A stretch of DNA of 64,000 bases from an uncultured Clostridia bacterium (GTDB lineage: Bacteria; Bacillota; Clostridia; TANB77; CAG-508), in assembly GCA_944386175.1 (NCBI GenBank), contig CALXAB010000001.1:47645-111644 (forward strand), given 5' to 3'. The position numbers and the translations under genes are program-made. Below are positions 12,693-50,939 of this stretch, one piece after another; positions within the stretch are counted from its first letter, which is position 1, and every line of letters begins with the position of its first letter. Under the pieces are notes generated by a model. It ran no database searches. It was given only the letters and a program-made list of their open reading frames with translations, and was not told the DNA's origin.

Positions 12693-12709
12693 ACACTCTC
12701 CCTTTCTGC

Positions 12710-13564
12710 TTAAACAGTTGAAACTTCTATATCTAAACTTGAAATAAATTCTTTTAGTTCTTTTATTATTTCTTCAAACTTAATATCATTTGCATATTTA
12801 TTCTTTTTAGCATATCCATTCCATAAACTTACAATTCTATCATATGAAGATATATTATCTAAAATCTGTTCATAATCCTTTAAATATCCAAGCGATTCTC
12901 TTTTATCAAATGTATTTTTTATTGATAGTTTTAAATTCTTAATATCAATATTATCTTTAAATTTGCTTAAAAACATATGTACATCATAGTAATCCTTCAT
13001 TCTGCTATTATACTATCCTCTTCTTAAAATGGTTTCAATTTTTTCAGATATGATTGTTTCAGCGTTATATGTATAAATTAATATCTTTTTATTTTCAAAT
13101 AATGATGGATAACTATACTCCAACTCTTTTGGTACAACTTTATCTCCTGTAGAAATATCAATATCTAAATTAATTTTAACATTTTCTAATTTTCCAATTA
13201 AATGATATTTATTTCCACCATATTCATCATCTTCTCTTATATCAGTTATATCAATTAATTCAAACTTCACTCCATCTTTTAAATCAATATTTAATATTTC
13301 GTTTAAAACTTTTGCCATCTGTTCTTTAGAAATATCTAAACCCTTGATTGTTGTATCCATATCTCTTGTAGTTCTATTATTGATTCCAAATAGTGCTGAT
13401 AACAGTAAACCACCTTTTAATATAAAATTTTCTTGATATTTTGAAAGTGAAATTCTTTCTAAGATTCTTTCAAACATAAATCTTTGTAACAATTCATAAT
13501 GATTTAGTTGGTATTTTTTCTCTAGTTCCTTTGATTTTTGTTTAAGTTCTTTATATTTTATCAC
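12710..13564 (-). pseudogene. AbiEii/AbiGii-family nucleotidyltransferase toxin interrupted by one in-frame TAG
   Basis: ORFs 13013-13564 and 12710-13000 are in the same frame, separated only by the TAG at 13013-13015. Together they are collinear with the intact 281-aa paralog at 53266-54111. Confidence 0.8.
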
Positions 13565-14141
13565 TCATCAAAACCTCCATTATAATAGTTAATTTCTCAT
13601 ATACATTAAATATTTTAGCATATTCATCTAATAGTTTTAAATTTTTATCCTTTAAATTAAAATAACTTTTCAAAATTTTATTATATAATTCTATATCGTA
13701 CTCATCTTGTTTTTTTAGCATATCACATATACATCTTTCTAAATTATATACAATTATAGGATTACCATATGGACTTGTTATAGTAATTTTACCTATATTT
13801 AACTTTTCTTTAGATACATAGTGAATTTTTACATTTTCTCTAATTCTTTTATGAGAATATGTAGTAACATCAAGTTCATATGGTACTCTTTCACTAATTC
13901 CCAGCAAGTGAAACGCAGTATTGTATGAATAAATAATATTGTTATAACGTTTTTGCAAAATATAGTATTCATCTTCAATTAATTTATTATCAATATATAA
14001 ACCTCTTGATACTCTTCTAATTATTCCTTTTTTAATTAATTCCGGAATATATATTCTTTGAATTCCGTTTTGCTCTATTTCACTAGATGTTATATAACCA
14101 TTATTTCTTTTTAAAAATTTTTCTATTTTTTTTATATTCAT
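13551..14141 (-). CDS. AbiEi-family type IV antitoxin / transcriptional regulator
   Basis: Overlaps the AbiEii start. Paralog of 54108-54701 (GYITSSEIEQNGIQRIYIPELIKKGIIRRVSRGLY). GGAGG precedes the ATG at 14141. Confidence 0.75.
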   Translation of the reverse strand: MNIKKIEKFLKRNNGYITSSEIEQNGIQRIYIPELIKKGIIRRVSRGLYIDNKLIEDEYYILQKRYNNIIYSYNTAFHLLGISERVPYELDVTTYSHKRIRENVKIHYVSKEKLNIGKITITSPYGNPIIVYNLERCICDMLKKQDEYDIELYNKILKSYFNLKDKNLKLLDEYAKIFNVYEKLTIIMEVLMSDKI

Positions 14142-14152
14142 ATTAACCTCCA

Positions 14153-14196
14153 TTACAAACGTACTACCATTTTATCATATTGTTGTACGTTTGTAA
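14153..14196. promoter_or_regulatory. inverted repeat upstream of abiEi (candidate autoregulatory operator)
   Basis: TTACAAACGTAC (14153-14164) and GTACGTTTGTAA (14185-14196): perfect 12-bp arms with a 20-nt spacer, 12 nt upstream of the start codon. Confidence 0.5.
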
Positions 14197-15049
14197 ATGT
14201 TATACTTGAAATTTATTAAATTTCTTATTAACCAATATAGTTTATAGTGTATTTTTACACCATATCATATCATTTTGAATAACAATACATTTTATATCAA
14301 TAATTTACTTGTTTCAATTTTACTTATTTCTTTGTTATAAACTTACTTTGAAATTTACAAACATTTACATTTTTTAGCAAAAAAATATAGCCAATAGTGG
14401 AATATTTTTATTCCACTATTGACTACTTTTTTATCTATTTTTTTCATTTGTGTAGTATTTTTACAAATATTTTTTGTATTTTACTTATGTGAGTTGTACA
14501 TTTTTTATTGTTTAAATTTATTTATAATCTTAATCTCATTGATCTTTCAAAAAACATTATTAATTGTACAAAAAGCTTTGAATGAAAAAAATTCAACCTA
14601 CTTTTTTGTTACCTATATTAAATATATTTTTTTATAAAAGCCATAAAATAAATTTTATTTATAAATTCATTTTATAGCTTAATTCTAATCAATTTGCTCT
14701 AAATTAATTAATTCATTTTCTTTAAATGTTAATTTTAGTAAACATGGTGATTTTATATTTAGTATTTTTTCATTTTATAAACAAGTGTAAATGTTAAAAT
14801 AAGATTTTTAGTTTATCAAAAACATAGGAAATGGAGAAACCACAAAGTGGTTTGTCTATTGAAATATGAAAAATACATCTACAACAGTCAAATTACAGAG
14901 GTGTTTTTCTTTTGTTGGTTATTTTTGTTTGCTAATATTATTACTAATGCAATAATTAAGGCAAACGTAATGATAGTTAACCCTATTAATGAATAATATA
15001 GTTTGTATAGCACCTAAAATAATTCCAAGTTCTGTTAGAGTTCTTGATA

Positions 15050-19154: not shown

Positions 19155-19991
19155 TTATATATTATCAGTATTAATTCCTAATTTTTTAAAATTTGCATTA
19201 ATTCTTGTCATGTCTCTATATCTTCCTTCTTTTAGTTCAAATCTGTAATTTTCTTTTTCTATATTTATCTTCTCATCATTCAGTTCTTTTTCTATATTAT
19301 ATGGGAGTTTTATAAATTGAAAAGAAATCTCTGATGTATAATCTTTACTTCCATATTCTCCTTCAATAATTAAATAAAAAGCTTTTGTTGTTTCTAAAAC
19401 ATTGCTATCTTTATTCCTATTTCTAATAACATCAAAAGAATTTCCTACACTTCCAACATTTATTATTGTTTTATTATATATTTTGTCCATATATGGGTGA
19501 TGAATATGCCCATATATTACAACATCTGCAATATTTTGTGATACTGTTTTTTCAGTTGGTAAAAACATTTGATATTTAGTATCTATACTATCAACATTTA
19601 ATATAGCTTTATTATTTACTTTTGGTGTTGCATGAAATACCCTCACTAAACTTCCACTCATATAAAACTCATAACAAAATGGTAGGTTTAATAAGTATTC
19701 TTTATCTTCTTTAGCTAATAATGACTGATTCCATTTAATTCTTTTTTGCTCTTGTTTAGGCATATTTCCTATATTTTCATGACTTTTTGAAAAATGTTCA
19801 TCACAATTTCCTTGTAATACCACATCACAGTTTTCTTTTATCAATTCAACACATTCTTTTGGATGTACTCCTTTGGCTATAATATCACCTAAACATATAA
19901 TCTTATCTACATTTCTTTTTTCTATATCTTTTAAAGTTACCTTTAATGCTTCTAAGTTGCCATGTATATCTGAAATTATTGCTATCCTCAT
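19155..19991 (-). CDS. metallophosphoesterase family protein
   Basis: MRIAIISDIHGN, LGDIIAKG, GNCD and GHIHHP motifs. Confidence 0.75.
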   Translation of the reverse strand: MRIAIISDIHGNLEALKVTLKDIEKRNVDKIICLGDIIAKGVHPKECVELIKENCDVVLQGNCDEHFSKSHENIGNMPKQEQKRIKWNQSLLAKEDKEYLLNLPFCYEFYMSGSLVRVFHATPKVNNKAILNVDSIDTKYQMFLPTEKTVSQNIADVVIYGHIHHPYMDKIYNKTIINVGSVGNSFDVIRNRNKDSNVLETTKAFYLIIEGEYGSKDYTSEISFQFIKLPYNIEKELNDEKINIEKENYRFELKEGRYRDMTRINANFKKLGINTDNI

Positions 19992-20107
19992 ATTTAATTC
20001 GACCTCTTTTCCTTATAACCAATTTATATCACAAAAAGCTAAATTTTCATAGTATTTTACCAATATTTCCAAACATATTTATCCTTAAATTTTAATATAA
20101 TTTTATA

Positions 20108-20345
20108 AGTACACTTAGTGAACTTTTTCTTAAAAATCACTTCTTTTTTGTTCATTTAGTGAACTTTTGCACTCTAAAAAGCGTTTTTTATCCATTCACT
20201 CGGTGAATTTTTGCATCAGATCTGCATAAAATTTTTGTTTTTTTATTAACTCTTGAAGGCTTGCCCTTCAATGTGTATATGCGTTGCGTAATGCACGCTA
20301 TCCTGCCTTTAGTATTCACTTTAGTTCACCTTATCAAAATTAATT
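20108..20345 (-). repeat. partial, orphan copy of the R module (distal half only)
   Basis: Collinear with 51134-51350, 36674-36880 and 43392-43605. Dyads at 20108-20124, 20150-20164 and 20194-20208. Conserved core and hairpin at 20246-20307. No smORF or recombinase adjacent. Confidence 0.85.
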
Positions 20346-20452
20346 TATGTAAATTGTTGAATTATTTCCTTTTTTATGCTATATTAACTGTATCGTTTCA
20401 AAATCTTCTTTATAAAATTTCTACTCAAAATTATTTCAAAGGAGGTGTATTT

Positions 20453-20791
20453 GTGGATTTAAATCTATTGGAACCTATTATTAATAATCTTGATAAAGCA
20501 ATTCATAAGACTAACTTAAAAGACTCTTTTATAGACGAGTTTATTCATGATTTACAAAGAAGTATTTTAAGGCAAAACCTTGATTATGATTATAGTAAAT
20601 TACCTAAAAATACCATATTTGAAGTCGACTATATTGAAAATGGATTTGCTTCTTGTTTAGATACTGCACAAAAACATTCAGAAAAATATTATATTCCAGA
20701 AGAGTTACTTGATGAAACTGCCAAAAATGCAGATTATATTCAACTTGACGGTAACAAATATACTGCTGTTTCTAATCCATATAAAAATTAG
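20453..20791 (+). CDS. hypothetical protein (112 aa)
   Basis: AGGAGG at 20440-20445 and GTG start at 20453. The longer ORF from 20261 would read through the R repeat and is unlikely. Confidence 0.5.
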   Translation: MDLNLLEPIINNLDKAIHKTNLKDSFIDEFIHDLQRSILRQNLDYDYSKLPKNTIFEVDYIENGFASCLDTAQKHSEKYYIPEELLDETAKNADYIQLDGNKYTAVSNPYKN

Positions 20792-21767: not shown

Positions 21768-22589
21768 CTATACATTTGCAACTTGTAATGTTTCAAAATA
21801 ATCTAGTACACTTTTAACTACCTCTTCTATTGGTAGTTCTAGCCAATTGTTTTTAGCAGTATTTAAACTCTTCAAATAATTTTTGTTATGTAATATTCTA
21901 TTTAATCTTTTAAATATATCCTCTAAGTTATTTTCTTTCATAGTTTCATCACTAAATATAAAAGTATTAAAACATTTTATCAATTTATTCTTATTTAAAT
22001 TTTCATTATTTATTAAATAATAGAAATCAAATATATCTTTGTATCTTGTAGAGATAAAACCAAATTTTAATAATGATTTCAATTTTTCTGAAAAAATTTG
22101 CTCTTTAGAATTTATTAGTAAAGTAACACTTTCTTTGATATTATTTAGATCAAAACAATATTCTTCTTGTTCAATATCAAAATTTTTATGCACTCCTATA
22201 TCTAATTTTGTTTCAATTTTATTATGTCTTTTATCTTTTAATTCAATATATACTCTTTTTCCATTATAATCTTGATGACTTAATTCTTCAATTGGAGCTA
22301 TAATTTTTATTGTTATATCTGATTCTTCATGATTCAACTTATCTATAAAATTTTCTATGGACTCATTTGATAAAGAATACTTTATAAAATCTAAGTCTAA
22401 ATCTCTTGTAGCTCGACGACTATCTTTAGAAATATTATGCATAACTACTCCACCTTTTATAGTTATATTTCTATTTAAAGAACTTTTGGATATTTTGGCT
22501 AGTATAATATCTTGACATACTTTGGCAGATGCATCTAAATGTTCATATCCATCTTTAATATAGTTATCTCTCATTTCTTTTAAATTCAT
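21768..22589 (-). CDS. AbiEii/AbiGii-family nucleotidyltransferase toxin (second locus)
   Basis: ITIKGGVVMHNISKDSRRATRDLDLDF nucleotidyltransferase core. Start overlaps the stop of the upstream antitoxin-like gene. Confidence 0.7.
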   Translation of the reverse strand: MNLKEMRDNYIKDGYEHLDASAKVCQDIILAKISKSSLNRNITIKGGVVMHNISKDSRRATRDLDLDFIKYSLSNESIENFIDKLNHEESDITIKIIAPIEELSHQDYNGKRVYIELKDKRHNKIETKLDIGVHKNFDIEQEEYCFDLNNIKESVTLLINSKEQIFSEKLKSLLKFGFISTRYKDIFDFYYLINNENLNKNKLIKCFNTFIFSDETMKENNLEDIFKRLNRILHNKNYLKSLNTAKNNWLELPIEEVVKSVLDYFETLQVANV

Positions 22590-27291: not shown

Positions 27292-27975
27292 TTACTTTCC
27301 AAAAATTCTACTTGCTTCTACTTGATTATATAATGCTTCTTCATTATCATAATAGAAAGCCCATTCTTTATCTCCATATGAAAAGTGCCACCACTCACCA
27401 TCATATGGAGCAAATCCTTCTTTCATCATAATTTTTCTTAATAATTTCCTATTATTTTTTGCTTCCTCTGATATATTTTCAGTTTCATAATAGCATTGTA
27501 TAGTACTATAATCTAATATATCTGAACCAAAATCTAATATTTTATTTTCAACATCATCATATATAGCTGCATCAACTGCTCCACCTGTCGGATGTCCTGA
27601 AACAACTGGTACAGCAATTTTCTCATGTATGTATTCATACATCTCTATTTCATCTTCAAATTTATCCTTTACTTCTTCTAGGATTTCATTAAAATATTTC
27701 TCTTGTTTTTTCATATCTCTAAAACCATATACTACTATTATTTTATAATTTTCATTTACTTCTTTTAACTTTTTTGCAACATTTATAAGTTTTTTATAAA
27801 CAGTTTTTCTTACAGCTATTTGATGTCCATATTCCAACATATTTCTTCTTTCTTGATATTTTCCAATCACTAGGTCATCTTCTAATGGAAGTAGTACAAA
27901 TTCTTCTTTGTCTGTTTCTTCATTAAAGTTCTCAATAGTTATCAAATCTTCATATCTTACAAAATTATTTGCCAT
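27292..27975 (-). CDS. VanX/DdpX-like D-Ala-D-Ala dipeptidase (M15 family)
   Basis: Zinc/catalytic motifs SGHPTGGAVD and EWWHFSYGD. Confidence 0.75.
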   Translation of the reverse strand: MANNFVRYEDLITIENFNEETDKEEFVLLPLEDDLVIGKYQERRNMLEYGHQIAVRKTVYKKLINVAKKLKEVNENYKIIVVYGFRDMKKQEKYFNEILEEVKDKFEDEIEMYEYIHEKIAVPVVSGHPTGGAVDAAIYDDVENKILDFGSDILDYSTIQCYYETENISEEAKNNRKLLRKIMMKEGFAPYDGEWWHFSYGDKEWAFYYDNEEALYNQVEASRIFGK

Positions 27976-27997
27976 TTGTATATTTGTCCTTTCTTTC

Positions 27998-29317
27998 CTA
28001 TTTTTTATTTTTTTGTAGTATTTTTATAGTTTCATCTAGCGTTATAGTATTTTGTTCCCCTGAATTCATATCTTTTAATGTTATTACATTATTTTTTATT
28101 TCTTCATCTCCTATAATTATTACATAATTTGCATTAATATTATTAGCATACTTGAATTTTTTTCCTATCTTTTGTTGTTCAATATTAATTTGTACATTTA
28201 TACCCTTTTCTCTTAGTTTTGCAGCTACTTTTGCACACATTTCACAGTCATCTGTCATTGAAATTATTAATACTTCTGCAATTGTTTCTTCAGTTGCTGA
28301 AATTATTTTATTATCTATTAGTTGAAAAAATAGCCTTGATAATCCTATTGAAATCCCTACTCCTGGCATTTTTCTATCAGTATAAAATTCTGTTAAATTG
28401 TCATATCTTCCTCCTGAACATATACTTCCTAAGTTTTTATATTGATTTAAAAATGTTTCATAAACTGTTCCTGTATAATAATCTAACCCTCTAGCAATAC
28501 TCAAATCAATTTTATAATTCTCTTCTGGAACTCCAAATATTTCAATAAATTTAGAAACTTCTTTTATTTCTTTTATACCTTCATTAAATATTTCATTATT
28601 AATTTGCATATTTTCTAATTCTTTTATTTTTTCTTCATTGTTTCCTCCTATACCCAAAAATTTAATTATAACATTAGCTTTTTTTTCTGGCATAAGTACT
28701 AATAATTCTTTTTTTACTTCTTCTTTTCCTATTTTTTCTATTTTATCAATTATTCTTAATATTTCAGATGATATATCTTCAAGTTTTAAACTTGAAAAAA
28801 GTCCATTTAATATTTTTCGATTATTTATACATATTGTAAAATCATCAAATCCTAACTTTTTAAAGGTATTATATATAATAGATGGAATTTCTGCATCATT
28901 TATTATTGACAATTCACCATCTCCAATAATATCAACATCACATTGATAAAATTCTCTATATCTTCCTCTTTGAGGTTTCTCACCACGATATACTTTTCCT
29001 ATTTGGTATCTTTTAAATGGAAAACTTAATTTATCATAGTATTCAGTTACATATTTAGCTAATGGTACTGTTAAATCAAACCTCAAAGCTAAATCTGTAT
29101 CTCCTTTTTCAAATCTATAAATTTGTTTTTCCGTTTCTCCTCCAGCTTTGGCCAGTAAAACATTTGCATCTTCTATTATTGGTGTATCTAATGGTACAAA
29201 ACCATATTGTTCGTAAGATTCTTGTATTATCGCTCTCATTTTATTAAATAATATTTGTTCATTAGGTAATAATTCCATAAATCCTGGTAAAGTTTTTGGT
29301 TGTATTTTCCCTTTCAT
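27998..29317 (-). CDS. hisS: histidine--tRNA ligase, copy 1 (divergent type)
   Basis: Class II motifs FRYE-like (KQIYRFEKGD), RYREFYQCDVDIIG and GGRYDNL, plus a C-terminal anticodon-binding domain. 439 aa. Confidence 0.85.
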   Translation of the reverse strand: MKGKIQPKTLPGFMELLPNEQILFNKMRAIIQESYEQYGFVPLDTPIIEDANVLLAKAGGETEKQIYRFEKGDTDLALRFDLTVPLAKYVTEYYDKLSFPFKRYQIGKVYRGEKPQRGRYREFYQCDVDIIGDGELSIINDAEIPSIIYNTFKKLGFDDFTICINNRKILNGLFSSLKLEDISSEILRIIDKIEKIGKEEVKKELLVLMPEKKANVIIKFLGIGGNNEEKIKELENMQINNEIFNEGIKEIKEVSKFIEIFGVPEENYKIDLSIARGLDYYTGTVYETFLNQYKNLGSICSGGRYDNLTEFYTDRKMPGVGISIGLSRLFFQLIDNKIISATEETIAEVLIISMTDDCEMCAKVAAKLREKGINVQINIEQQKIGKKFKYANNINANYVIIIGDEEIKNNVITLKDMNSGEQNTITLDETIKILQKNKK

Positions 29318-29329
29318 TCTAACTCCTCC

Positions 29330-29980
29330 TTAATAATCTCCTTTAATATTTTTTTTCTTTTTATTTCCTTGTTTTTTATGTCTTTCAATTAATTTATCTT
29401 CTATTTCTTGTATTGAAACATTAGATTTAAACATTAATACTAGTGTATGATATATTAAATCAGAAATTTCTCCTATCAATTCTTTTTTATCTATGTTTTT
29501 CGCAGCTATTACTGTTTCAGTTGCTTCTTCACCAACTTTTTTGCATATTTTATCTATTCCTTCATCTAATAAATAATTAGTATATGAATTTTCCTTTGGA
29601 TTAATATTTCTATCAATTATCTGATTATAAATATCCTGTAAGATATTTGTATCATCATTATTTTCATAAGAAACTATTTCCTTAAAAAAGCATGAATAGT
29701 TACCAGTATGACATGCTCCTTTTCCTTCCTGCTTTACATAAATCAACAATGTGTCGTTGTCACAATCTAAATACATGCCTTTTATTTCTTGAATATTTCC
29801 TGATGTTTCTCCTTTATGCCATAATTCTTTTCTACTTCTTGAATAAAAACATGTTTGTTTGTTTTCTATCATATATTTATAACTATCTTCGTTTACATAT
29901 GCTAACATCAATACTTCTTTTGTTTTATAATCTTGTACTATTGCTGGAATTAACTCCATCTTTTTAAAATCTGGCTTCAA
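29330..29980 (-). CDS. hisIE: bifunctional phosphoribosyl-AMP cyclohydrolase / phosphoribosyl-ATP pyrophosphatase
   Basis: HisI part [18 protein letters not shown]...DCDNDTLL...ACHTG. HisE part [15 protein letters not shown]. Confidence 0.9.
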
Positions 29981-30082
29981 TATTCTTCAACTCCTAAAAT
30001 ATTTATATTACTTATATATTGTTATTTTTATTGTGGGGAAAATAATACAATTATTTTCCCCTTTGATTAAACACTTTAAATC

Positions 30083-31447
30083 TTAAAGCTCTTTATCAAG
30101 GTAGATTTTTAAATCTTCCTCTTTTCTCTCTTTCTGTAATCTTCTCATCTTGTCAACACTACTTACACCTTCAAGTAATTTAAATCCTAATTTCACGGCA
30201 ATATTATAGGACATAGATTTACCTATTTCGAGAGTTTTCATATATACTCTTTCATAACCATCCTCTTTCATTACTTCAATAGCATATTTCATTAACTCTG
30301 TCCCAATTCCTTTTCCACGAAACTCTTGTAAGACTGTTATATCAGCAAGATATGCTGTTTTTTCTGGATTATCATAATGGACAGGATGCCTATCTTTTAA
30401 TAACATTTTTCTAAAAGTTACTGTTCCTATACATTCATCTCCAATATAATATCCATAAACATGACCGTATTTTGTTAGTTCTTCATATTCTTCTTTGATT
30501 AAATCATCTGTCCAATCCTCACAATATGGGGGATTACAAAATACTTTATATGCTTTTATAAAGTCTTTTATTTTATCTGGTGTTATTGCTTTGATTCTCC
30601 GTGCCATCATAGTTTTTTCCTCCTCTAATTCAATTGAATATTTTTTTCCATCAGTTTCAACATTGCCTAAAATAGTAGCCTTTTCAAAATTCCCTTCTTT
30701 ATAGATTATGTCTGCTGTAATAATCAATCCAGAAGGCTGTAAAACATCAATTTTTACACTTTCATTTTTTAAATAAGCTTCTACAATACATGTAGCTGTT
30801 GTCCCAGACCCACATGCTGTTTCATAGAAAAGTGTATGAATTTCCTTAACCCATACAATTGGATTAATCTTTATTACACCTTTTTCTTTTTCGCAGAACA
30901 TAACTCCTACTGCTTCACTATATTCAAGATGATATTTATGAATATAGTGCATCCCCATTGCTTTTAAATCCTTCTTATTAATAAGATATTTTTTAGCAAT
31001 TTCATCTTGAATAACTACAGTTACCATACCATTCATTTTTACAATAAAAATTCCTGGCTCTTTTTCAGTGATTACATCATCACCATGATAAAGTGGAATT
31101 TCGCACCATGCCTTTCCTTCTTCATCAACTCCTGCATTAATCAAATCTTTAGAATTTACAAACATTTGTAAATTCCCTGATTTACCATTTAAATAAATGG
31201 TTGCTGCACTTCTTGTTGCATTACCACAAAACTCTCCCCCTGCCATTTGCAATTCAGGTTTATGATTTAATTCAATAAACCCAACCTGCTCAACATTAGA
31301 ATGTTTTGCCATAATCAAATCGTTGATTTTCTTTCTCTGTTTTTGTGTATATTCCAATCCATAAACGAATGCTGTATCATTACCAGCTGGTCTATAAATT
31401 GAATATTCCACATTAGTTACAGATGCTTTGCAATGTTTTTCGTTCAT
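30083..31447 (-). CDS. fusion protein: DapF-fold PLP-independent racemase/epimerase (N-terminal) + GNAT acetyltransferase (C-terminal)
   Basis: RPAGNDTAFV, GGEFCGNATRSAA and ETACGSGTTATC (two catalytic-Cys motifs of the DapF fold). The C-terminal part has VLQEFRGKGIGTELMKYA (GNAT motif A). Confidence 0.65.
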   Translation of the reverse strand: MNEKHCKASVTNVEYSIYRPAGNDTAFVYGLEYTQKQRKKINDLIMAKHSNVEQVGFIELNHKPELQMAGGEFCGNATRSAATIYLNGKSGNLQMFVNSKDLINAGVDEEGKAWCEIPLYHGDDVITEKEPGIFIVKMNGMVTVVIQDEIAKKYLINKKDLKAMGMHYIHKYHLEYSEAVGVMFCEKEKGVIKINPIVWVKEIHTLFYETACGSGTTATCIVEAYLKNESVKIDVLQPSGLIITADIIYKEGNFEKATILGNVETDGKKYSIELEEEKTMMARRIKAITPDKIKDFIKAYKVFCNPPYCEDWTDDLIKEEYEELTKYGHVYGYYIGDECIGTVTFRKMLLKDRHPVHYDNPEKTAYLADITVLQEFRGKGIGTELMKYAIEVMKEDGYERVYMKTLEIGKSMSYNIAVKLGFKLLEGVSSVDKMRRLQKERKEEDLKIYLDKEL

Positions 31448-31520
31448 AATGTTCTCCTTTCTTTGAATTGAAGGTAAGTATAAAATATTTATACTTAGTA
31501 ATGAATAAATTACATTAATT

Positions 31521-31549
31521 ATTATATATTCATTTTATGTAAAAGTCAA
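31521..31549 (-). promoter_or_regulatory. sigma-A-type promoter for the racemase-GNAT/hisIE/hisS unit
   Basis: TTGACT (31549-31544), 17-nt spacer, TATAAT (31526-31521). Its -35 overlaps the hairpin GTAAAAGTC...GACTTTTAC (31539-31577) just after the hisG stop. Confidence 0.5.
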
Positions 31550-31579
31550 GAAAATCCAGTATATTCAAGACTTTTACGG

Positions 31580-32215
31580 TTATTTATTATTTTGTTTTTC
31601 TATTAAATCAATTAAATTTAAAATTTCTTCCTTCTTATACTTAAATTTAGTCTTATTACAAATTAATCTTGTACTTACATCTGCTATTTTCTCTATAACT
31701 TCTAAGCCATTCGCTTTCAATGTTGCTCCTGTTTCTACTATATCTACTATTGCATCTGTTAATCCAACTACTGGTCCTAATTCAACTGACCCTTCAAGTT
31801 TTATTATTTCAACATCTTCATCTTTACTTTCAAAATAGTTTTTAGCAACACTAGGATATTTTGTTGCTATCCTTTTTCTTCTATTTAATTTTAGATTTTT
31901 ATATTCAGGATAACTACAGACTGCAAATGAGCATTTTCCTATTTCCAAATCTAGTAATTCATAATAATTTTTAAAAGAATTTTCCAGTAATGTATCACTA
32001 CCTACAATTCCTATATCAACAATACCATGTTCAATAAAGGTAACTACATCGTTTGACTTTGCAAATATTATTATCATTTTATCTTCTACGTTTATTTGTA
32101 ATTCTCTTTTTTTATTTATCATAGATTCTACATTATATCCTAATTTTTCTAACATTTCTGTCATCTTTTTTTCTATTCTACCCTTTGTTAAGGCTATCTT
32201 TAACATTTTGTTCAC
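31580..32215 (-). CDS. hisG: ATP phosphoribosyltransferase, short form
   Basis: 211 aa. [13 protein letters not shown] and [18 protein letters not shown]. The short HisG form requires HisZ. Confidence 0.9.
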
Positions 32216-33176
32216 CTGCTCTTTCTACTGCTTTTAATATATTATCCATATAATAAGCCATTCCTATGGCTGGTACATCCTTTCCGAAATTGTTATATAA
32301 TTTGTCATATCTTCCACCACTTATTATAGGTTCTTCTACAAATTTACTATATACTTTAAATATAATTCCTGTATAATATTCCATATTAGGAACACAAGCC
32401 AAATCAAACAAATCTTGTTGTTTCATATTCATGGTTTCATACAATTCTTTCAATTCTATTAGACTATTCTTTAATTCATTATCTCTTAATTTTTCTATGG
32501 TTCTTACTAATATTTCTATATTTCCATTAAGTCTTGGTAAAGATATTAAAAAATTGCTTATATTTTTATCTATATTATATTTATCACAAAATTTTTTTAA
32601 TCCACTTATATTTTTTTGTAGTAATAGCTGCGAAAACTCTTTCTTTTTTTCAGATCCAACTATTTGGCATAATCTATTATAAAAACTAGCTGAACCAAGT
32701 TCTATCTTTAAATCCTTTAATCCAAAAAGTGGTAAAGATTTTTGTAATAATGATATACACTCTACATCTCCTTCTATTGCTTTTTTTCCAATTAATTCTA
32801 TCCCTACTTGGTATATTTCGCTATTCTTTCCTTTATGTTCCTTTTCTTTTCTATATACTTTTCCAAAATAGCAATACCTTTTTATTTCATCTTTTTTTTG
32901 TGATACATAGTATCTAGCTATTGGAACTGTAAAATCCCATCTTAAAGCAACATCTTTTCCTTCTTTATTTATATATTTGAATAAAGTACTCTCATCTAAA
33001 TTCTTATATACACTTTTATATAATTCCACATATTCAAATGTTGGCATCAGCATTTCTATATATTTTTCATCATAGAATATCTTTCTCAATTTACTTTCAA
33101 AATTTCTTAATTTATTAACATTCTCAGTAATTACCCCACTACTTTCTTCTGGTATTGAAAATTTGTATAATTCCAT
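32178..33176 (-). CDS. hisZ: ATP phosphoribosyltransferase regulatory subunit (HisRS paralog without anticodon-binding domain)
   Basis: 332 aa with a HisRS-like catalytic core ([19 protein letters not shown]). Overlaps hisG. Confidence 0.85.
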
Positions 33177-33196
33177 AAAAATTCTCCTTTCACATT

Positions 33197-33251
33197 AAAA
33201 AGCTATATAGTTAAATAATATCTTTCTATGAATATTATCTACCTATATAGC
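33197..33251 (-). terminator. attenuator terminator in the hisZG leader
   Basis: On the minus strand: GCTATATAGG (33242-33251) ... CTATATAGC + TTTTT (33197-33210), 20 nt upstream of the hisZ RBS. Confidence 0.65.
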
Positions 33252-33314
33252 TTTATATTTTTATATAGGCACATCAAAATCGACTTGTGCCTATACATTA
33301 TATTAGACACAAGT

Positions 33315-33362
33315 TTAAAAATGATGATGCACTTTATTTATATTTTTAGTTATATTCTTCAT
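33315..33362 (-). CDS. 15-aa leader peptide MKNITKNINKVHHHF with three consecutive His codons
   Basis: AAGAGGAA RBS, ATG at 33362-33360, CAT CAT CAT at 33329-33321, TAA at 33317-33315. Followed by overlapping alternative stems. Confidence 0.6.
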   Translation of the reverse strand: MKNITKNINKVHHHF

Positions 33363-33392
33363 TTTTATTCCTCTTTTTTCTTATTTTTAATT

Positions 33393-33421
33393 ATAATACA
33401 TTATTTTTTTATATATGTCAA
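33393..33421 (-). promoter_or_regulatory. sigma-A-type promoter of the hisZG leader
   Basis: TTGACA (33421-33416), 17-nt spacer, TATTAT (33398-33393). Confidence 0.6.
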
Positions 33422-33482
33422 GTACAAAATTCATTTTTTTTAACATGCTATAACCAATTATGATTATAGCATGCTTTAGATT

Positions 33483-33767
33483 TTACTTAGAGAAAGATAT
33501 AATTGCATAATGTCGCTTTGCATCAATTTGATAATAAGAATGCCCCCTAATATTAATTGGCTTTTCTATTGTTTTAATAGAAATTTTCAGCCCATTACCA
33601 TTTGCCCAGCTTGTTAGTTCTCTTTCCATAGCAACATCTACATCCCTTTTTTCTTTTTCAATCTGAACTTTCTTGAAAAATACTAATGCTACTTTTACTT
33701 TGAACTTAATCCATTCCGTATCAAACCGTGACCTTTCTCTTCTTTTTCTACTTTCAAATTTTGACAT
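33483..33767 (-). CDS. hypothetical basic protein (94 aa)
   Basis: ORF only. Followed by the hairpin AGCATGCTATAA..TTATAGCATGTT. Confidence 0.35.
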   Translation of the reverse strand: MSKFESRKRRERSRFDTEWIKFKVKVALVFFKKVQIEKEKRDVDVAMERELTSWANGNGLKISIKTIEKPINIRGHSYYQIDAKRHYAIISFSK

Positions 33768-33873
33768 ATAGATTTACCTCCTACTATTTATTTTATTTAT
33801 TTTATCACATACACTTATATTTTTCAATTAAAATTTTAGGAAGCCATGCATTATACACAGCTCCCTATGATTT

Positions 33874-35205
33874 TCAGTCCTTATTATTAGTTTCGATAAA
33901 TTGCATAATCCCTTCATAGTCAAAGATACCGAACTCTCGATTGTTTCCAGTTTCCATATCCTTGACTTGGATTTTTTGCTGTTTGATTTCATCTTCCCCA
34001 ATAATAATAACGTAAGGAATGTTCATTTTGTTGGCATAATTCATACTTTTTTTCAGTTTCTGAGTCTTTTTTTCCATTTCTGTTTTGATTCCAACTTCAC
34101 GCATTTTAGTAACAAACTTAAATGTCTGTTCTTCTGTTCCCATTGGAATCACAAACAAATCAACGGTAGAAAACTTTTTGTCAGAATTCTTTAAGACTAA
34201 AATTTCATATATAACATCTAATCCAAAAGACATTCCAACTGCTGGATATTCATTTCCATCATCAATGAATGTTGTAATAATTTTATCGTATCTGCCTCCT
34301 CCTCCTATGCTCATGTTGAAATCTTGTACACCAACTTTTCTGTCTTTCAGGAAAATCTCCCAAACTGTACCAGTATATATATCAATCCCTCTTGCCAAAT
34401 AAGGAGCAAATTTCATGCATTTTTCGGCCTCTGTTCCTGACAGATAATCATATAATGCATCAATTTCTTTTATCCCTTCGGCAATCATTTCATTATCATA
34501 TACTGATAATAATCTTTTTAATGTTACATAATCAGAGTTTAGAACATTTTTCAATGCCTCCACTTTATTGGCATCAATACCAATAGCTGCAAACTCTTCA
34601 AATAATTCTTCCTCTGTGAGTTTGGCAAACTTATCAATCAACATGATTGATTTTCTTAATATTTCTTCCGAAACATCACCAAAAATAGAGAAGATGATAC
34701 CACTCAATAGCTTTCTGTTGTTGAATTCTATTTCAATGTCAAGTCCTAGCTCTTTATATGCTTCGCTTGTCATTGTCATGTATTCTGCTTCTGCTAAAAC
34801 ACTTTTAACTCCAACAACATCAACATCGCATTGGGTAAATTCTCTGTTTCTACCTACCTTAACTGGACCATCTCTAAAAACTTTTCCAATCTCATACCGT
34901 TTAAAGGGTAAGGTAACTCCTTTATTTGAACTAATCAATTTAGAAAAAGTGATTGTCAAATCATACCTTAAACCCAGTTTTCTTTTTCCTTGATCACTCA
35001 ATTTGTACATCTCGTTCAGAATATCTGCACCTTCTGAATATTTAGATGCCAATAAGTCATACATACAAAGAATTGGTGTTTCGACTGGTGAAAATCCGTA
35101 CTTTACAAAGATGCTTTGCAATACACTTTTGATTTTTTCCCGGATAATTTGTTTTTCCGGCAAATAATCATAAGTCCCCTTTAAGTTTTCAAAATTTCTG
35201 CTCAT
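33874..35205 (-). CDS. hisS: histidine--tRNA ligase, copy 2 (canonical bacterial type)
   Basis: KGTYDYLPEKQ, LRYDLTITFSK, NREFTQCDVDVVG and GGGGRYDK, plus an anticodon-binding domain. 443 aa. Confidence 0.85.
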   Translation of the reverse strand: MSRNFENLKGTYDYLPEKQIIREKIKSVLQSIFVKYGFSPVETPILCMYDLLASKYSEGADILNEMYKLSDQGKRKLGLRYDLTITFSKLISSNKGVTLPFKRYEIGKVFRDGPVKVGRNREFTQCDVDVVGVKSVLAEAEYMTMTSEAYKELGLDIEIEFNNRKLLSGIIFSIFGDVSEEILRKSIMLIDKFAKLTEEELFEEFAAIGIDANKVEALKNVLNSDYVTLKRLLSVYDNEMIAEGIKEIDALYDYLSGTEAEKCMKFAPYLARGIDIYTGTVWEIFLKDRKVGVQDFNMSIGGGGRYDKIITTFIDDGNEYPAVGMSFGLDVIYEILVLKNSDKKFSTVDLFVIPMGTEEQTFKFVTKMREVGIKTEMEKKTQKLKKSMNYANKMNIPYVIIIGEDEIKQQKIQVKDMETGNNREFGIFDYEGIMQFIETNNKD

Positions 35206-35450: not shown

Positions 35451-36125
35451 TTAAAATTCCCTTATATCATATCTAAAATATAGTCCATCCATTTTTATTT
35501 TATGAAAATCTTTTATTATATTTTCTTTGACTTTATTAAAATCTTTTCCTACTCTTCTTAATGCAAATACTCTACCTCCTGAAGGATATAGTATATTATT
35601 TTTTGATATTATATGTTCCCCTATAATATCTGTTGTATTTTTTACTTTGTTCATACCTAAAATTGGTTCATCAAAACTACTTCTTTCTACTTCTGGATAT
35701 CCTGCTGAAAATCCATACATTGCTATAGAAAAGCAGTCTTTTTTCCAACAATTATTTATCTTTTCTACATCTTCATAAAAGAAATTTATTATATCTATAA
35801 AAGGTTTATTCAGTAACCCTAATAAAGCTAACCACTCTGGATTACCTGTTCTTGTATTATATTCTAATACATATACTTTTTTATCTTCGGTAACCATTAT
35901 TCCTATATATAAAATATAGTTATATTCCATATTTTCTTTTTTCATACCTCTTATAGTTGGTTCTATTATATCTTTTTTTAATTGTTCTTCTTTTTCTGTG
36001 CTAACTCTTGCATAAGCACATACTCTTAAATTACCTTTTATAACTTCTCCTGTTGTTCTATTAATTCTTCCTTTTTTCTTCTCTATTACTTGTACTTTCA
36101 AATTTAACCTCTCTTTCTCAAGCAT
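35451..36125 (-). pseudogene. chimeric ORF: first 48 codons of an LSR gene fused in frame to the C-terminal ~176 aa of a PurD-like (phosphoribosylamine-glycine ligase) gene
   Basis: Residues 1-48 (MLEKERLNLKVQVIEKKKGRINRTTGEVIKGNLRVCAYARVSTEKEEQ) are almost identical to LSR 48681-50573. From 35981 leftwards the sequence matches the PurD C-terminal half (EYNTRTGNPEW, SGGRVFAL, DGLYFRYDI). Confidence 0.8.
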
Positions 36126-36168
36126 AGAGAATCTTTATGTTTGTATTATATACTAAAATTTTATATTT

Positions 36169-36354
36169 TTAAATACCTATGTGGATTAAATTATATTCTT
36201 TTAAAATATTTTGTTTTAGTTCTAAATATCTTTTCTCTTTAATTAATCCTGCATTATATGTTTTATTTAGAATTGCTATTTTAATGCTACAATTAAAAAT
36301 ATTTTCATTTAGTTTTACATTTTTCGTATTATCAAATTTTACTTCGTACAACAT
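36169..36354 (-). CDS. 61-aa conserved small ORF preceding the LSR (copy A)
   Basis: MLYEVKFDNTKNVKLNENIFNCSIKIAILNKTYNAGLIKEKRYLELKQNILKEYNLIHIGI. Nearly identical to copy C and homologous to copy B. Confidence 0.6.
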   Translation of the reverse strand: MLYEVKFDNTKNVKLNENIFNCSIKIAILNKTYNAGLIKEKRYLELKQNILKEYNLIHIGI

Positions 36355-36439
36355 AAAAATCCTCCTCTGCTTGAATTAAATTTCAAAAAAGAGCGACAAA
36401 AAAGCCAGCCGGCTAGCTAGACTGACTTCTTTGTCTTAC

Positions 36440-36890
36440 ATTTTTTGATAATACAATTATATTATGCTGTTCTATAAAGTTCAATTCCCGTTTTTTTCCC
36501 TTTTTTCTATTTTAATTGATAAAGCGTTGACTTTTTAGTTAGTACACTAAGTAAACTTGTGTAAAAATTTTTTTAATTATTTTTTACTTTATTATTTTTG
36601 AGTTCACTTAGTGTACTTTTTGTTTTGTATTTAAAAACCTTAGTTCACTTAGTGAATAAAAAACTAACTTTCAAGTACACTTGGTGAACTTTTTCTTAAA
36701 AATCACTTATTTTTCGTTCATTTAGTGAACTTTTGCACTCTCAAAGGCATTTTTTAGCTGTTCATTCGGTGAATTTCCGCATCAAATTTGCTTAAAATTT
36801 TTGTTCTTTTGTTAACTCTTGAAGGCTTGTCCTTCAATGTGTATAGGCGATGTGTGCACACTCGCTTTCCTGCCTTTAGTATTGTTTTTT
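36440..36890 (-). repeat. R module, copy A
   Basis: Dyads at 36541-36557, 36601-36617, 36642-36658, 36674-36690, 36716-36730 and 36760-36774. Core and hairpin at 36812-36874. Ends 2 nt from the stop of the ABC gene. Confidence 0.85.
36456..36484 (-). promoter_or_regulatory. consensus sigma-A promoter of unit A'
   Basis: TTGAAC (36484-36479), 17-nt spacer, TATAAT (36461-36456). A terminator-like leader hairpin at 36403-36427 plus a T-run follows. Confidence 0.6.
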
Positions 36891-36891
36891 A

Positions 36892-38670
36892 TCATATATT
36901 AATTACTTTTTGTTGACTCATATATAATTTATAATAATTTCCTTTTATGCTCATTAATTCTTCATGAGTTCCATATTCTACTATTTCTTTATCTTTAATA
37001 AAAAATATTCTGTCACTATCCACTATTGTAGATAATCTATGAGCAATCGTTATTACAGTTTTATTTTTAACCATTTCTTTTGTTAGATTTTGTAGCATTT
37101 TTTCTGTTTTTACATCAATCTTACTTGTTGCTTCATCGAAGATTAATATTTTAGGGTTATTAATAATTGTTCTTATATAGCATAATACCTGTTTTTCTCC
37201 ATCTGATAGATTTTTTCCATTACTACTTAATTTTGTATTGTATCCATCTTCTAAACTCATTATCCAATTATGTACATTCAATCTTTTACATATTTCTATT
37301 ACTTTATCATCAGTTATATTTTCATTTCCATATTTTAAATTTTTCATAATGCTTGTACTAAATAAGTAATTTTCTTGTTGCATAATAGCTATCTGTTTTC
37401 TAAGTCTATTTAGTTTTATATTTCTAACATCTTCTCCATCAATAAAAATATTTCCTGAATCTATATCATAAAATCTTCCAATTAGATTTGTAATAGTGGT
37501 TTTTCCACTTCCTGTACTACCTACAATAGCTACTTTTTCTTGCGGTTTTACTTTAAAAGATATATTATTTAAAACTTTATTATTTTCTATATAAGAAAAA
37601 CTAACATTTTTAAATTCTATTTCACCTTTTATTTTGATGTCTTTAGCATCTATTTTATCTTTTATATCTATTTTTTCATCCATTGTTTCAAATATTCTCT
37701 CTAAATATGTAATTGAATTAATAAAATCATCTAATGTTTTAAATAAGTCTTCTATAGGTTGCCAAAAGTTAGATGAATAACTTCCCATAGCAACAATAGT
37801 TCCAACTGATGTAGTTGGATATAAAAACATCGCTCCTACAAAATATATTGTTGCAGTTACCCAATGTGACATTGTTTGTACACTACACCATCCAATATTG
37901 CCAAATTTTATTTGTTTGCAACTTGCATCTTTCCAACTTCTACTTAAATCATTAAATATATCTTCATTCTTTTCTTCTCTATTAAATGCTTGGGTTATTT
38001 GCATTCCTTTTAATGTTTCTAATAGATATGCATTAGTATTAGAATTTTTATTATTAATTAGTAATTTATTTTTTCTCTTTATCTTAGCTGTTGAAGCAAA
38101 TATAAAAATAAGTATTACTATTCCAACTAATGCGATTAATGTTAGTTTCACACTTGTTAAAAACATAAATATCAGAATAATAAGCATATTAAATATGTTT
38201 AAAAATGTTGTTACTAATTTATCTGTAATTAGAGTAGAAACATCTTCTGCATATTCTGTTAGTCTAACTAGTATTTTTCCATGAGGTCTTGTGTCGTAAT
38301 AATTAACTGATAAATACTGAATATGTGAAAACAAATCATTTTTTATATCTTCTACAATATTTTGATTTACTTTAGCCAACATTTTTTTATACACTTTAGT
38401 TACAATAATAGACAATAATACTAAAAATAATGCTAATAATATTATGATAAACAATTTTTCATAATCGCTATTAGGAATAACATCATCGATTACATATTGT
38501 AGTATTTTAGTGATAAATAAAGTAGCTATAATAGATATACAATTTAAAATAAATATAATAATCAATTTTGATTTATATTTTTTTATGTATGTTAAACCTC
38601 TTTTATAATTAGAAAGACTGAATGAAGTATTTTTTTCATCTTGGTCATATTTGTTTACACTCATATACAT
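36892..38670 (-). CDS. ABC exporter, fused permease/ATPase (heterodimer partner 2)
   Basis: Six N-terminal TMs, Walker A GSTGSGKTT, signature LSDGEKQ, Walker B ILIFDEATS. Confidence 0.85.
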   Translation of the reverse strand: MYMSVNKYDQDEKNTSFSLSNYKRGLTYIKKYKSKLIIIFILNCISIIATLFITKILQYVIDDVIPNSDYEKLFIIILLALFLVLLSIIVTKVYKKMLAKVNQNIVEDIKNDLFSHIQYLSVNYYDTRPHGKILVRLTEYAEDVSTLITDKLVTTFLNIFNMLIILIFMFLTSVKLTLIALVGIVILIFIFASTAKIKRKNKLLINNKNSNTNAYLLETLKGMQITQAFNREEKNEDIFNDLSRSWKDASCKQIKFGNIGWCSVQTMSHWVTATIYFVGAMFLYPTTSVGTIVAMGSYSSNFWQPIEDLFKTLDDFINSITYLERIFETMDEKIDIKDKIDAKDIKIKGEIEFKNVSFSYIENNKVLNNISFKVKPQEKVAIVGSTGSGKTTITNLIGRFYDIDSGNIFIDGEDVRNIKLNRLRKQIAIMQQENYLFSTSIMKNLKYGNENITDDKVIEICKRLNVHNWIMSLEDGYNTKLSSNGKNLSDGEKQVLCYIRTIINNPKILIFDEATSKIDVKTEKMLQNLTKEMVKNKTVITIAHRLSTIVDSDRIFFIKDKEIVEYGTHEELMSIKGNYYKLYMSQQKVINI

Positions 38671-40379: not shown

Positions 40380-40505
40380 TTATATTTTTTCTCCAATATT
40401 TATTATATTTTTATATTACTTTTCATATTCTATCATAATTTTATTTCTTTCTCAATAAAATTATAAAGTTTCAAAATATATTTATCCTTACATTTGCTTA
40501 ATTAT

Positions 40506-40581
40506 GAAAAAATCCGCAATAGAAATAATGTCAAGAGCGAGTGATAATGAGTTTATTTACTCTTGATATTATTTTTATTGC
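40506..40581 (-). terminator. long conserved hairpin H (copy b) with T-run
   Basis: On the minus strand: GCAATAAAAATAATATCAAGAG - 22-nt loop - CTCTTGACATTATTTCTATTGC, then GGATTTTTTC. Confidence 0.65.
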
Positions 40582-40821
40582 AGATTAAATTTACCCTGCA
40601 AATGTATGAGGCAAAAAATAAGTATCAGTACATATCTACCGACACTTAAATTTATAAAGATTCTCTATTACTTATTTCATAAATTCTTTCTAGCAATTGA
40701 AATAACTGATAATTTTACATATCTACAATTAAACACAACCTATATATGTCATGCTTATCATAGACACAATCTCAAATTCCCTAGTATTTCAAACACTTCT
40801 ATCAATTTTCTAAAATTTAAT

Positions 40822-41004
40822 TTATGTGTTTCCACTTACCACATCTGCAACTACTTTAACTTTCACATCTGAATTTTGATGTTTTTCTCTTCCATATCTT
40901 CCTTTTTTCTCGAAAGTTATAATCTCTGAAAACATATCAAATTCAAGTATTACCTGTCCTGTTTTAGTTGTAGCACTGCCACACATTCCACATGTGTTGG
41001 TCAT
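40822..41004 (-). CDS. CxxC tail module of LSR B, in a separate overlapping frame
   Basis: MTNTCGMCGSATTKTGQVILEFDMFSEIITFEKKGRYGREKHQNSDVKVKVVADVVSGNT is homologous to the in-frame C-terminus of LSR C. Overlaps the end of LSR B by 41 nt. Confidence 0.5.
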   Translation of the reverse strand: MTNTCGMCGSATTKTGQVILEFDMFSEIITFEKKGRYGREKHQNSDVKVKVVADVVSGNT

Positions 41005-42679: not shown

Positions 42680-42881
42680 CTTTCCTCCGTTCCGCCTAGA
42701 GATAAAACTTAATAATTTTATTTTATAGAAAAGTGCATTTTAATGCATCTTTTCTATAAAACAAGGTTAATTTACCTATATTTGCCCGAGCTTTAGCTCG
42801 TGGCATTTGAGCCTAGAAATCTTTGATTTCGTTAAGGCTCAATTATCTTATATCATTTTTTAGATAAAAAGTAAATTGTTC

Positions 42882-50934: not shown

Positions 50935-50939
50935 TTCCC

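Follow-up and report, generated by a model that had tools for sequence, protein, structure and literature searches.

An internally deleted recombinase module as the probable source of a partial R copy in an accessory-gene island of a gut Clostridia genome

The non-coding sequence R occurs four times, always in the same orientation, in the 64,000 nt of DNA from an uncultured Clostridia bacterium that were analysed here (the window). Three copies belong to units A, B and C, in which R precedes a gene, whole or truncated, for a large serine recombinase (LSR). The fourth is partial, lies 16–31 kb from these units and has no recombinase gene behind it. What is this partial copy, how did it arise, and can the DNA between it and the other copies still be deleted or mobilised through it? 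The first-pass annotation regarded it as lying outside the array and offered two origins, a remnant of a further unit or a landing-pad-like site. Our analysis points to the former: the locus at 20006–20350 is most probably an internally deleted LSR module that has kept its head and its tail end, while the 2.8–3.3 kb between them have gone.

The window has a GC content of about 25%, and its genes are almost all on the minus strand. From 58.5 to 19 kb this strand carries a series of LSR modules or their relics with accessory cargo between them. The series opens with a tail-only relic (T_58k; 57852–58544, minus strand). Its homology to unit B sets in 38 nt upstream of the stop codon of LSR-B and continues to the end of the T tail; it has neither R nor LSR, and is followed by cargo including APH, GNATs, Sel1 and AbiE. 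Unit C (48619–51375, minus strand) consists of R (50574–51375), a small open reading frame (smORF) and the LSR-C gene (48681–50573; 630 aa); its LSR-C-type tail starts with AATGTTTGGAGATAAAACTT at 48619–48638, and its cargo includes HD and SLFN/AlbA genes. Unit B (40469–43792, minus strand) is a complete module. It begins with the palindrome Pal (43671–43789) and a 13-nt motif (43659–43675), followed by a K1 arm with hairpin H1, the R head and dyads (43138–43644), the smORF (42882–43058), the LSR-B gene (40964–42679; 571 aa) and a small tail ORF. Its T tail (40469–41002) ends in a second copy of the motif (40478–40494), so that the motif brackets the unit, and two ABC transporters follow as cargo. 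LSR-B and LSR-C both contain the Resolvase, Recombinase and zinc-ribbon domains (Pfam PF00239, PF07508 and PF13408); the catalytic domain of LSR-C has its closest structural match in PDB 3g13 (E = 1e-57), which is putatively a recombinase from a conjugative transposon of the C. difficile type.

Unit A (35965–36915, minus strand) retains a full R, with head, six dyads, promoter, leader and smORF, and is 91% identical to unit C over 934 nt. Its LSR-C-like gene extends for only 48 codons (through ...YARVSTEKEEQL), after which the reading frame continues as a fusion with the C-terminal half of purD (ORF 35451–36125; domains GARS_A and GARS_C); the cut lies after the catalytic-serine motif, and YARVST is readable in the stub. 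The 16 kb of cargo behind it include HisRS paralogues, HisG, HisIE, a GNAT, an M15 peptidase, a response regulator, AbiEii and an MBL gene. The partial copy (20350–20006) follows as the fifth member of the series, with cargo that begins with a phosphoesterase gene. Probes for the module parts detected no further relics in 1–20 kb or in 20.4–35.9 kb, and the 16-kb interval is therefore one cargo block, that of unit A. The partial copy is thus no stray outside the array: the series of five is unbroken, and the copy is the relic that comes next in it. With a cut LSR in unit A and a tail-only relic in the same window, decay is the local norm.

The order of parts in a complete module was derived by aligning many loci. 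The module starts with a palindrome of about 150 nt, AAATCCTC...GAGGATTT, and the motif TAAGGATAAGTAT. A left arm of about 60 nt follows in one of two types: K1, which ends in hairpin H1, and K2, which ends in GTGAAYACTAAAG and is the type found in the partial copy. Next come GGCAGGA, hairpin H2, the invariant palindrome H3, a conserved A/T-rich spacer and three to seven dyads of the form GTWCAC-N3-GTGWAC; these lead into the LSR promoter, a leader with a terminator-like hairpin, a smORF of 58–61 aa and the LSR gene. B-type modules continue with a small ORF homologous to the C-terminal extension of LSR-C, tail hairpins and the motif TAAGGATAAATAT. The module end has GTTTTGTAAATATTGG...TG-A-TATAAA, an extended -10 element facing outward, and unrelated cargo lies beyond it; the end of LSR-C modules comprises AATGTTTGGAGATAAAACTT, a terminator hairpin and TGnTAAAAT. 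The palindrome is followed by the motif, the K arm and R in 69 of 72 cases. Apparent 3′ remnants of LSR genes were considered as evidence of crossover within the gene, and were rejected once identified as the separate small tail ORF (homology to the LSR-C extension, E = 8e-7). The smORF product was considered as the protein that might bind the dyads; AlphaFold predicts for it a hairpin of two helices (pLDDT 76), for which the PDB gave no significant match and Pfam none at all.

R heads are widespread in related genomes. A search of a species-representative genome collection with the 27-nt invariant core of R, TTAACTCTTGAARGCTTGNCCTTCAAT, returned at least 115 stretches, and all but one of the matches listed are in uncultured Clostridia or Clostridium MAGs, one Clostridia match being labelled Candidatus Merdicola; the exception is a MAG labelled Erysipelotrichaceae. 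The MAGs come from the gut of mouse, human and chicken, and the core is often present several times per genome and several times per contig in the same orientation, while it is absent from the viral contigs of a phage collection. About 40 of the listed loci have an LSR-B- or LSR-C-type gene (83–95% amino acid identity) whose start is 580–820 nt downstream, or further away where an IS has inserted. Many others lack an LSR although more than 2 kb of sequence follow the core, which makes solo heads common; several of them are split by IS insertions. A group II intron was considered for the split dyad 1 of one locus (L085), and the proposal found no support in Rfam.

The partial copy contains the head of such a module (20108–20350, minus strand), as seen from repeats, direct reading and matches to complete-module heads. 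In minus-strand order, it comprises a K2-type left arm (20308–20349), truncated at ACATAAAT and lacking the Pal-motif part that would lie upstream; the GGCAGGA edge (20301–20307); the co-varying hairpin H2, GCGTTGCGTAATGCACGC (20281–20298), beside the end sequence TATCCTGCCTTTAGTATTCACTTTA (starting TATCCTGCC...; 20299–20323); the invariant core inverted repeat H3, TTGAAGG-CTTGC-CCTTCAA (20253–20271); the conserved A/T-rich spacer; and three dyads, at 20194–20208 (dyad 1, weaker than the other two), 20150–20164 (dyad 2) and 20109–20123 (dyad 3). Self-BLAST of the window aligns the copy as a direct repeat to unit C (20086–20323 with 51114–51349; 87.5% over 240 nt, E = 5e-80), to unit A (20107–20316 with 36673–36883; 87.2%, E = 5e-68) and to unit B (20107–20307 with 43391–43602; 75.9%, E = 6e-35), and an independent repeat finder recovered the same four-member family, including 20108–20349. 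The most conserved part is the 109 nt from GCAGGA onward (GCAGGA..+109), which are 92–93% identical to copy C; the exact 27-nt core match is retained in this head, and H2 is of the C type. No LSR promoter, smORF or LSR is present between 19991 and 20453, nor any other ORF on the module strand. The anatomy given in the first-pass annotation, with three dyads, core inverted repeat and co-varying hairpin in the orientation of the array copies and without promoter, smORF and LSR, is thus borne out; the close resemblance to copy C that it reported is real in overall identity and in hairpin type but is not exclusive, for the copy is overall equally close to A.

A second module part follows the head. 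A segment of about 87 nt (20006–20092, minus strand) is homologous to the tail ends of LSR modules in other genomes: it starts with the motif TAAGGATAAATAT, continues with GTTTGGAAATATTGGTAAAATACTATGAAAA... and then has the extended -10 sequence TG-A-TATAAA, in agreement with the tail-end consensus, which has the motif, then GTTTTGTAAATATTGG... and then TG-A-TATAAA. In at least 16 loci the same segment comes behind a T tail, whether the module is complete or has no LSR, and ahead of varied cargo. BLAST matches to it have 79–89% identity, with E-values down to 7e-21, except for two weaker ones (L103, 76%, E = 4e-4; L096, 81%, E = 4e-5). A probe made from the tail of another locus, L018, matches the window at 58.5, 40.9 and 20.09 kb only. 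The border motif itself, ATATTTATCCTTAAATT on the plus strand, is exact at 20075–20091, has one mismatch at 40478–40494 and two at 43659–43675, and is degenerate at 57916–57932 (ACATATATCTTTACATT; five mismatches); sites with at most two mismatches number 4 in the window, compared with about 0.7 expected. The earlier suggestion that variants of this motif lie at unit borders holds, as the motif ends LSR-B module tails and precedes most R heads, although the coordinates given for them were off by 5–9 nt. In these alignments, the motif is the start of the ~87-nt tail-end homology and more than a border mark.

Dyad 3 of the head is joined to the tail end by a 15-nt junction (20093–20107; minus-strand sequence TATAAAATTATATTA). 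The sequence across it reads ...GTGTACT TATAAAATTATATTA AAATTTAAGGATAAATAT..., with GTGTACTTATAAAATTATATTAAAATTTAAGGATAAATATG as the unique junction string. These 15 nt are the only stretch that complete modules do not match, and L100 has a comparable one ahead of its phosphoesterase module.

Both parts match single complete modules in order. When the region 20360–19992 was compared with the LSR-B modules of L016, L018, L070 and L098, it gave two collinear matches, one for the head (20350–20108; 75–84%) and one for the tail (20092–20009; 84–85%), with E-values from 1e-10 to 7e-21. In these four modules the two matches lie 2783–3268 nt apart; the locus in the window is therefore a module minus about 3 kb of interior. 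The parent module would once have stood directly upstream of the phosphoesterase cargo gene, as is the case in L100, where the order is Pal, motif, K1, R, LSR-B, a short tail, the same tail-end sequence and then a phosphoesterase gene 76% identical to the one in the window. In the simplest history, one internal deletion would have removed the LSR gene together with its promoter, leader and smORF, any further dyads and, on the tail side, the small ORF and the hairpins, leaving a relic that would now head the phosphoesterase cargo block. We infer deletion as the cause from this comparison; no intermediate, with the full module at the same locus in a close strain, was found. The remnant origin proposed in the annotation is thereby upheld, both by the head and tail homology to complete modules and by the phosphoesterase behind a full unit in L100.

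The copy sits at a block boundary of a mosaic accessory-gene island, and both adjoining blocks are accessory, shuffled DNA. On one side, the first cargo gene after the relic encodes a metallophosphoesterase (19155–19991, minus strand; Pfam Metallophos_2, E = 9e-21), whose orthologues in 79 metagenome loci (50–83% amino acid identity) follow at least 10 unrelated upstream neighbours. On the other side lies a 112-aa ORF (20453–20791, plus strand), the last gene of the unit A cargo block, which is transcribed away from the R head and is 99% identical in the species-level relative L111. The tail end includes a putative extended -10 promoter, TG-A-TATAAA (20022–20033), directed towards the phosphoesterase gene and recognised by consensus only; without a -35 box, it is absent from a generic promoter scan. 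This promoter probably still drives the phosphoesterase operon. The relic itself would have no autonomous mobility, and its head of about 240 nt, 76–88% identical to the other R copies, could serve as a substrate for homologous, possibly LSR-assisted, exchange. The partial copy is an ordinary decay product, for which no special mechanism is needed. What counts against so plain an account is that the head is not visibly decaying, a state that fits either a recent deletion or continued selection as a cis-site. Furthermore, the left breakpoint falls exactly after a dyad, like other solo R–cargo junctions and the ends of an SDR cassette, and could reflect dyad-directed recombination instead of random deletion. 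This cassette of 878 nt is shared by three MAGs at 99.4% identity; it has its start in a dyad and, in L036, a further dyad behind it. Near-identical segments between loci are such cargo cassettes, not module termini.

Tandem series of this kind with decayed members are known. ICEs, IMEs and CIMEs accrete in tandem and decay by deletion to elements without a recombinase, with ICESt1/ICESt3 as the model (PMC5704250). CIME arrays resemble the window in having successive units with cargo, and in that a relic without recombinase or transfer genes stands in tandem with related units that encode recombinases. CIMEs differ in retaining attL and attR, short target-derived repeats and a conserved target gene, whereas no att sites or target gene are defined in the window; here the repeat is an element-internal control region of 240–930 nt, and the modules are without transfer or mobilisation genes. 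As regards the ends by which CIMEs are recognised, the relic keeps the module head and tail end without the upstream Pal-motif part. Head-to-tail islands with serine recombinases, as in the window, are also seen in SCCmec composites and in the ssrA islands of Dehalococcoides, where the recombinase lies near one edge and the islands vary between strains (PMC3146451); some ssrA islands have no integration module and have been proposed to be cis-mobilisable or fixed (PMC3146451). What sets the window modules apart from both is their make-up, a single LSR with a smORF, a phased array of dyads and promoters that point outward; neither a tRNA or tmRNA gene nor a gene end was identified as their target. 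ICE/CIME arrays and ssrA islands are delimited by short repeats that derive from the target, at a conserved gene; unlike them, the window modules carry only a recombinase and small ORFs, and their cargo is shuffled gene by gene.

The principal alternative is that the R heads are active cis-sites, res- or att-like, of LSR-B and LSR-C, by which, in line with the annotation, the DNA from 20.35 to 36.9 kb could be excised as a circle or deleted. It is attractive because all four R copies are direct repeats and because the non-coding head is better conserved than the recombinase gene that it accompanies: the heads of B and C are 89% identical outside H2, while their LSR genes are 71% identical. Among 104 distinct heads, GGCAGGAAAGC, which lies outside the search pattern, is 94–100% conserved and conservation is 94% or higher at most of the 48 positions that follow the core, values that are partly inflated by the choice of loci with an intact core. 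The dyads, too, resemble accessory binding sites, being specific to R and phased at about 42 or 32 bp. The window has 18 of them against 0.10 expected, all within the four R copies, and 94% of the 436 dyads over the 115 listed loci lie within 900 nt downstream of a core. Their spacings peak at 41–43, 31–33, about 74 and 95 bp, all whole helical turns, a phasing which indicates that protein may bind cooperatively on one face of the DNA. In addition, LSR-C has its nearest catalytic-domain relative in 3g13, and the serine recombinase of Tn4451, the only such element to have been studied, needs no RDF (PMC5704250).

The annotation had suggested a search among close relatives for presence or absence of the interval. 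Strain-level contigs from different samples were gathered by exact-protein look-up. The region 19950–20500 is 100% identical in seven of them and 99.3% identical in one, with the same flanking genes in all the longer contigs; short contigs break inside the shared core or tail repeats, as is usual for assemblers. None of the eight shows a deletion, a circle junction or presence/absence of the interval, and the partial copy is fixed in the sampled population. Structural change is seen at greater distance. The relative L111 shares 98% identity with the whole of 21198–20195, rising to 100% over the stretch of more than 250 nt that leads to ...ACTAAAGGCAGGA; past the GGCAGGA edge identity falls to about 80%, and the sequence continues with another R lineage, an IS, GNAT/Sel1, a Ser-hydrolase and AbiE. 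Over longer times the edge of R is a genuine exchange point, and this speaks, as do the R–cargo joints at dyads, for active cis-sites. Polymorphism was in this way absent among strains and present, as a switch in content, between species.

The positions of the exchange points argue against a single fixed crossover. Joints recur at GGCAGGA and right after dyads, with others elsewhere in R: two copies in one genome (L015 and L116), for example, are identical up to ...AAATTTTA and then differ. Several breakpoint positions within R look more like homologous recombination than like one fixed crossover, and homologous recombination or gene conversion among R copies explains the exchange points at least as well as site-specific exchange does. 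Known att sites of serine integrases, moreover, share very short cores and not repeats of 240 nt (PMC5704250). The two left-arm types (the H1 hairpin and GTGAAYACTAAAG) were considered as B- and P-type att arms and rejected, since neither is ever free of R in 1.73 Mb; no attB- or attR-like partner products were seen, and the motif was considered as an insertion core, but the corresponding empty site of palindrome, motif and promoter was not found among the listed loci. We therefore regard active cis-sites as an unlikely explanation of the partial copy and mobilisation of the interval as hypothetical, and treat the head as a control region of the LSR module that is conserved, structured and bound by protein, and for which a role in recombination or transfer is possible.

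A slightly less probable proposal, to be set beside the internally deleted module, is that the head has been kept as a stand-alone non-coding element: an operator array for the phosphoesterase gene or the 112-aa ORF, a structured RNA, or an oriT-like single-stranded site. With an oriT-like site, recombinase-only modules would hitch a ride on conjugative elements. The head is strongly conserved over dozens of species-level MAGs, a conservation whose apparent strength is inflated by the choice of loci with an intact core, and solo heads are always upstream of, and co-oriented with, a downstream gene. H1 and H2 show compensatory changes, such as T-A to C-G and A-T to G-C, and a bulge that switches sides; H2 has many variants of this kind, which are not strictly tied to LSR type. 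Rfam gives no match at gathering score in the window, and over the full R only chance-level matches at E-values up to 1. RNAalifold applied to the 104 heads recovers the invariant H3 stem only. H2 can fold on both strands, and G-U pairs do not clearly indicate one of them; its variants are somewhat more stable on the plus strand of the window, but V4 favours the other strand. An operator array fits poorly with the position of the nearest dyad, which is some 90 nt upstream from the putative -10 sequence and does not overlap the promoter, and with the restriction of the dyads to R, as other promoters in the window have none. For an oriT-like site, no relaxase gene is present in the window.

Equally speculative, and in our estimate quite improbable, is the wider interpretation that R heads, those without an LSR included, are the sites of an undescribed LSR-based gene-shuffling system of uncultured low-GC gut Clostridia, with the 16-kb block as a mobilisable unit. 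Small LSR modules would then capture, exchange and express single accessory genes, in function somewhat like an integron.

The landing-pad proposal, by which the copy would be a naive chromosomal attB awaiting integration, can be set aside as extremely improbable, for although the copy is intergenic and adjoins a short motif that recurs at module borders, about 330 nt of the locus (~240 nt in the head and ~87 nt in the tail) have their homologues inside the element, attB sites of LSRs are short (under ~50 bp), and none of the 79 orthologous phosphoesterase loci, which are free of any such site, has the R core within 6 kb upstream.

For the module family, of which the partial copy on our preferred account is a deleted member, several other systems offer partial likenesses. 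Tn4451/Tn4453 (TnpX) and Tn5397 (TndX) share the same three-domain LSR, with the recombinase gene near one end of the element. Lyras and Rood are said to have found that the circular form of Tn4451 creates a promoter for tnpX; the outward promoter in the tail of the window modules would likewise face the head in a circle. We know of no dyad arrays or R-like heads in Tn4451. This transposon uses 2-bp GA cores, shows little specificity for its target and has mob and resistance genes on board (PMC5704250).

Two further comparisons are functional analogies only. Like a res site, R places several dyad sites directly upstream of a recombinase gene, overlapping its control region, and direct repeats of it would be deletion substrates. 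The res site of Tn3/gamma-delta has three subsites and serves a small resolvase with a C-terminal helix–turn–helix; R differs in having three to seven dyads, all of one type and phased at about 42 bp, and in that the gene behind them encodes a large serine recombinase. Like an integron, the island has promoter-poor accessory genes that are shuffled singly, and a platform with a recombinase gene and an outward promoter. Unlike an integron, it has serine recombinases only and no tyrosine IntI, and no hairpin or attC for each cassette; Pal is found only just before R, in 69 of 72 cases, and the recombinase modules are interspersed many times and not present once.

The module family seems to be undescribed, as the literature searched holds nothing comparable and Rfam gives no match. 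The partial copy exposes the ends of this widespread family, which is the more interesting object. If R heads are sites of recombination or transfer, the modules would account for the single-gene mosaicism of this lineage's reduced genomes, and could supply new LSRs with unusual targets that depend on accessory sites; should the heads be no more than regulatory leaders, the island is simply a stack of integrative elements in decay. The outward promoters of the modules would feed cargo genes that are highly shuffled. The source of the window is a spore-former, as it encodes SpoIIIAA, and proteins identical to those of the window are found only in gut-type metagenome assemblies.

In the modules, a non-coding head region (R) precedes the large serine recombinase (LSR). 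At unit B, an imperfect palindrome of ~150 nt (43671–43789) lies immediately 3′ of the upstream gene's stop codon. This palindrome is kept in dozens of MAGs and is followed by the recurrent border motif, the arm and R in 69 of 72 cases. It probably terminates transcription from both directions and forms part of the module 5′ end. Further into the module (36400–36480 and 50850–50930, both on the minus strand), the smORF is separated from the LSR promoter (TTGAAC-17-TATAAT) by a leader whose GC-rich hairpin precedes a T run (AGTCAG...GCCGGCTGGCTTTTTT). This leader looks like an attenuator or terminator that would govern smORF-LSR expression.

An 878-nt cassette carrying an SDR gene is 99.4% identical among three MAGs of different origin (L036, L060 and L049), and its start falls within a dyad (TTCACCAAATGAAC); in L036 and L060 the cassette sits inside R, with the head on one side, the LSR promoter on the other and another dyad after the cassette. 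IS elements recur in the dyad region of R (L065, L096, L101, L019, L066, L111, L035 and L120), either separating the head from the LSR or truncating a solo head; one IS end that recurs is GGTGTTAGAATAGAAATATAGACAC.

The tail relic at 57852–58544, which has no LSR, carries an insertion of ~105 nt made of short palindromic repeats of the ACGAAAA...TTTTCGT type, and repeats of this type are also found 5′ of several R heads with a K2-type left arm elsewhere (MAG loci L025, L034, L057 and L121). A small tail ORF of 54–60 aa (40790–40970, minus strand) overlaps the 3′ end of LSR-B and shares homology with LSR-C over the latter's C-terminal extension (residues 575–628; 30% identity, E=8e-7); the two are therefore one piece, which one module type carries as an independent gene and the other as a fusion. 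The small ORF survives alone in many LSR-less tails. In unit A, a chimeric ORF (35451–36125, minus strand) joins LSR-C-like codons 1–48, up to and including the catalytic YARVST motif, in frame with the C-terminal half of purD (Pfam domains GARS_A and GARS_C). No purD N-terminal half was identified among those window ORFs that were scanned against Pfam, suggesting that the chimera arose by illegitimate capture or by deletion.

An unusual his-related accessory cluster occupies 27292–35205 (minus strand). Besides HisG and HisIE, it encodes a HisZ-like protein and two full HisRS-like ones, together with a 454-aa CntK_N+GNAT protein and an M15 D-Ala-D-Ala dipeptidase. No gene of the cluster was found beside R copies of other MAGs. 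Rather than housekeeping his genes, the cluster may represent a biosynthetic set that is histidine-derived or aminoacyl-dependent. Orthologues of the phosphoesterase, the first cargo gene behind the relic at 20006–20350 (L146–L224; about 80% aa identity), between them follow at least 10 different upstream genes, and homology stops about 20–25 nt 5′ of the start codon; this is mosaicism at the single-gene level across the accessory regions of the clade.

Strains differ in the genes that lie between yebC and the anti-sigma factor gene (window ~12700–14200): AbiEi/AbiEii are present in the window and in L002, while L001 and L004 instead carry cytidylate-kinase-like, hydrolase, Rce1-like, DUF1706 and flavodoxin genes. 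Three AbiE-type (AbiEi/AbiEii) toxin–antitoxin or abortive-infection loci (13013–14153, 21768–22589 and 53266–54701) occur within the 64-kb window, all of them in variable blocks.
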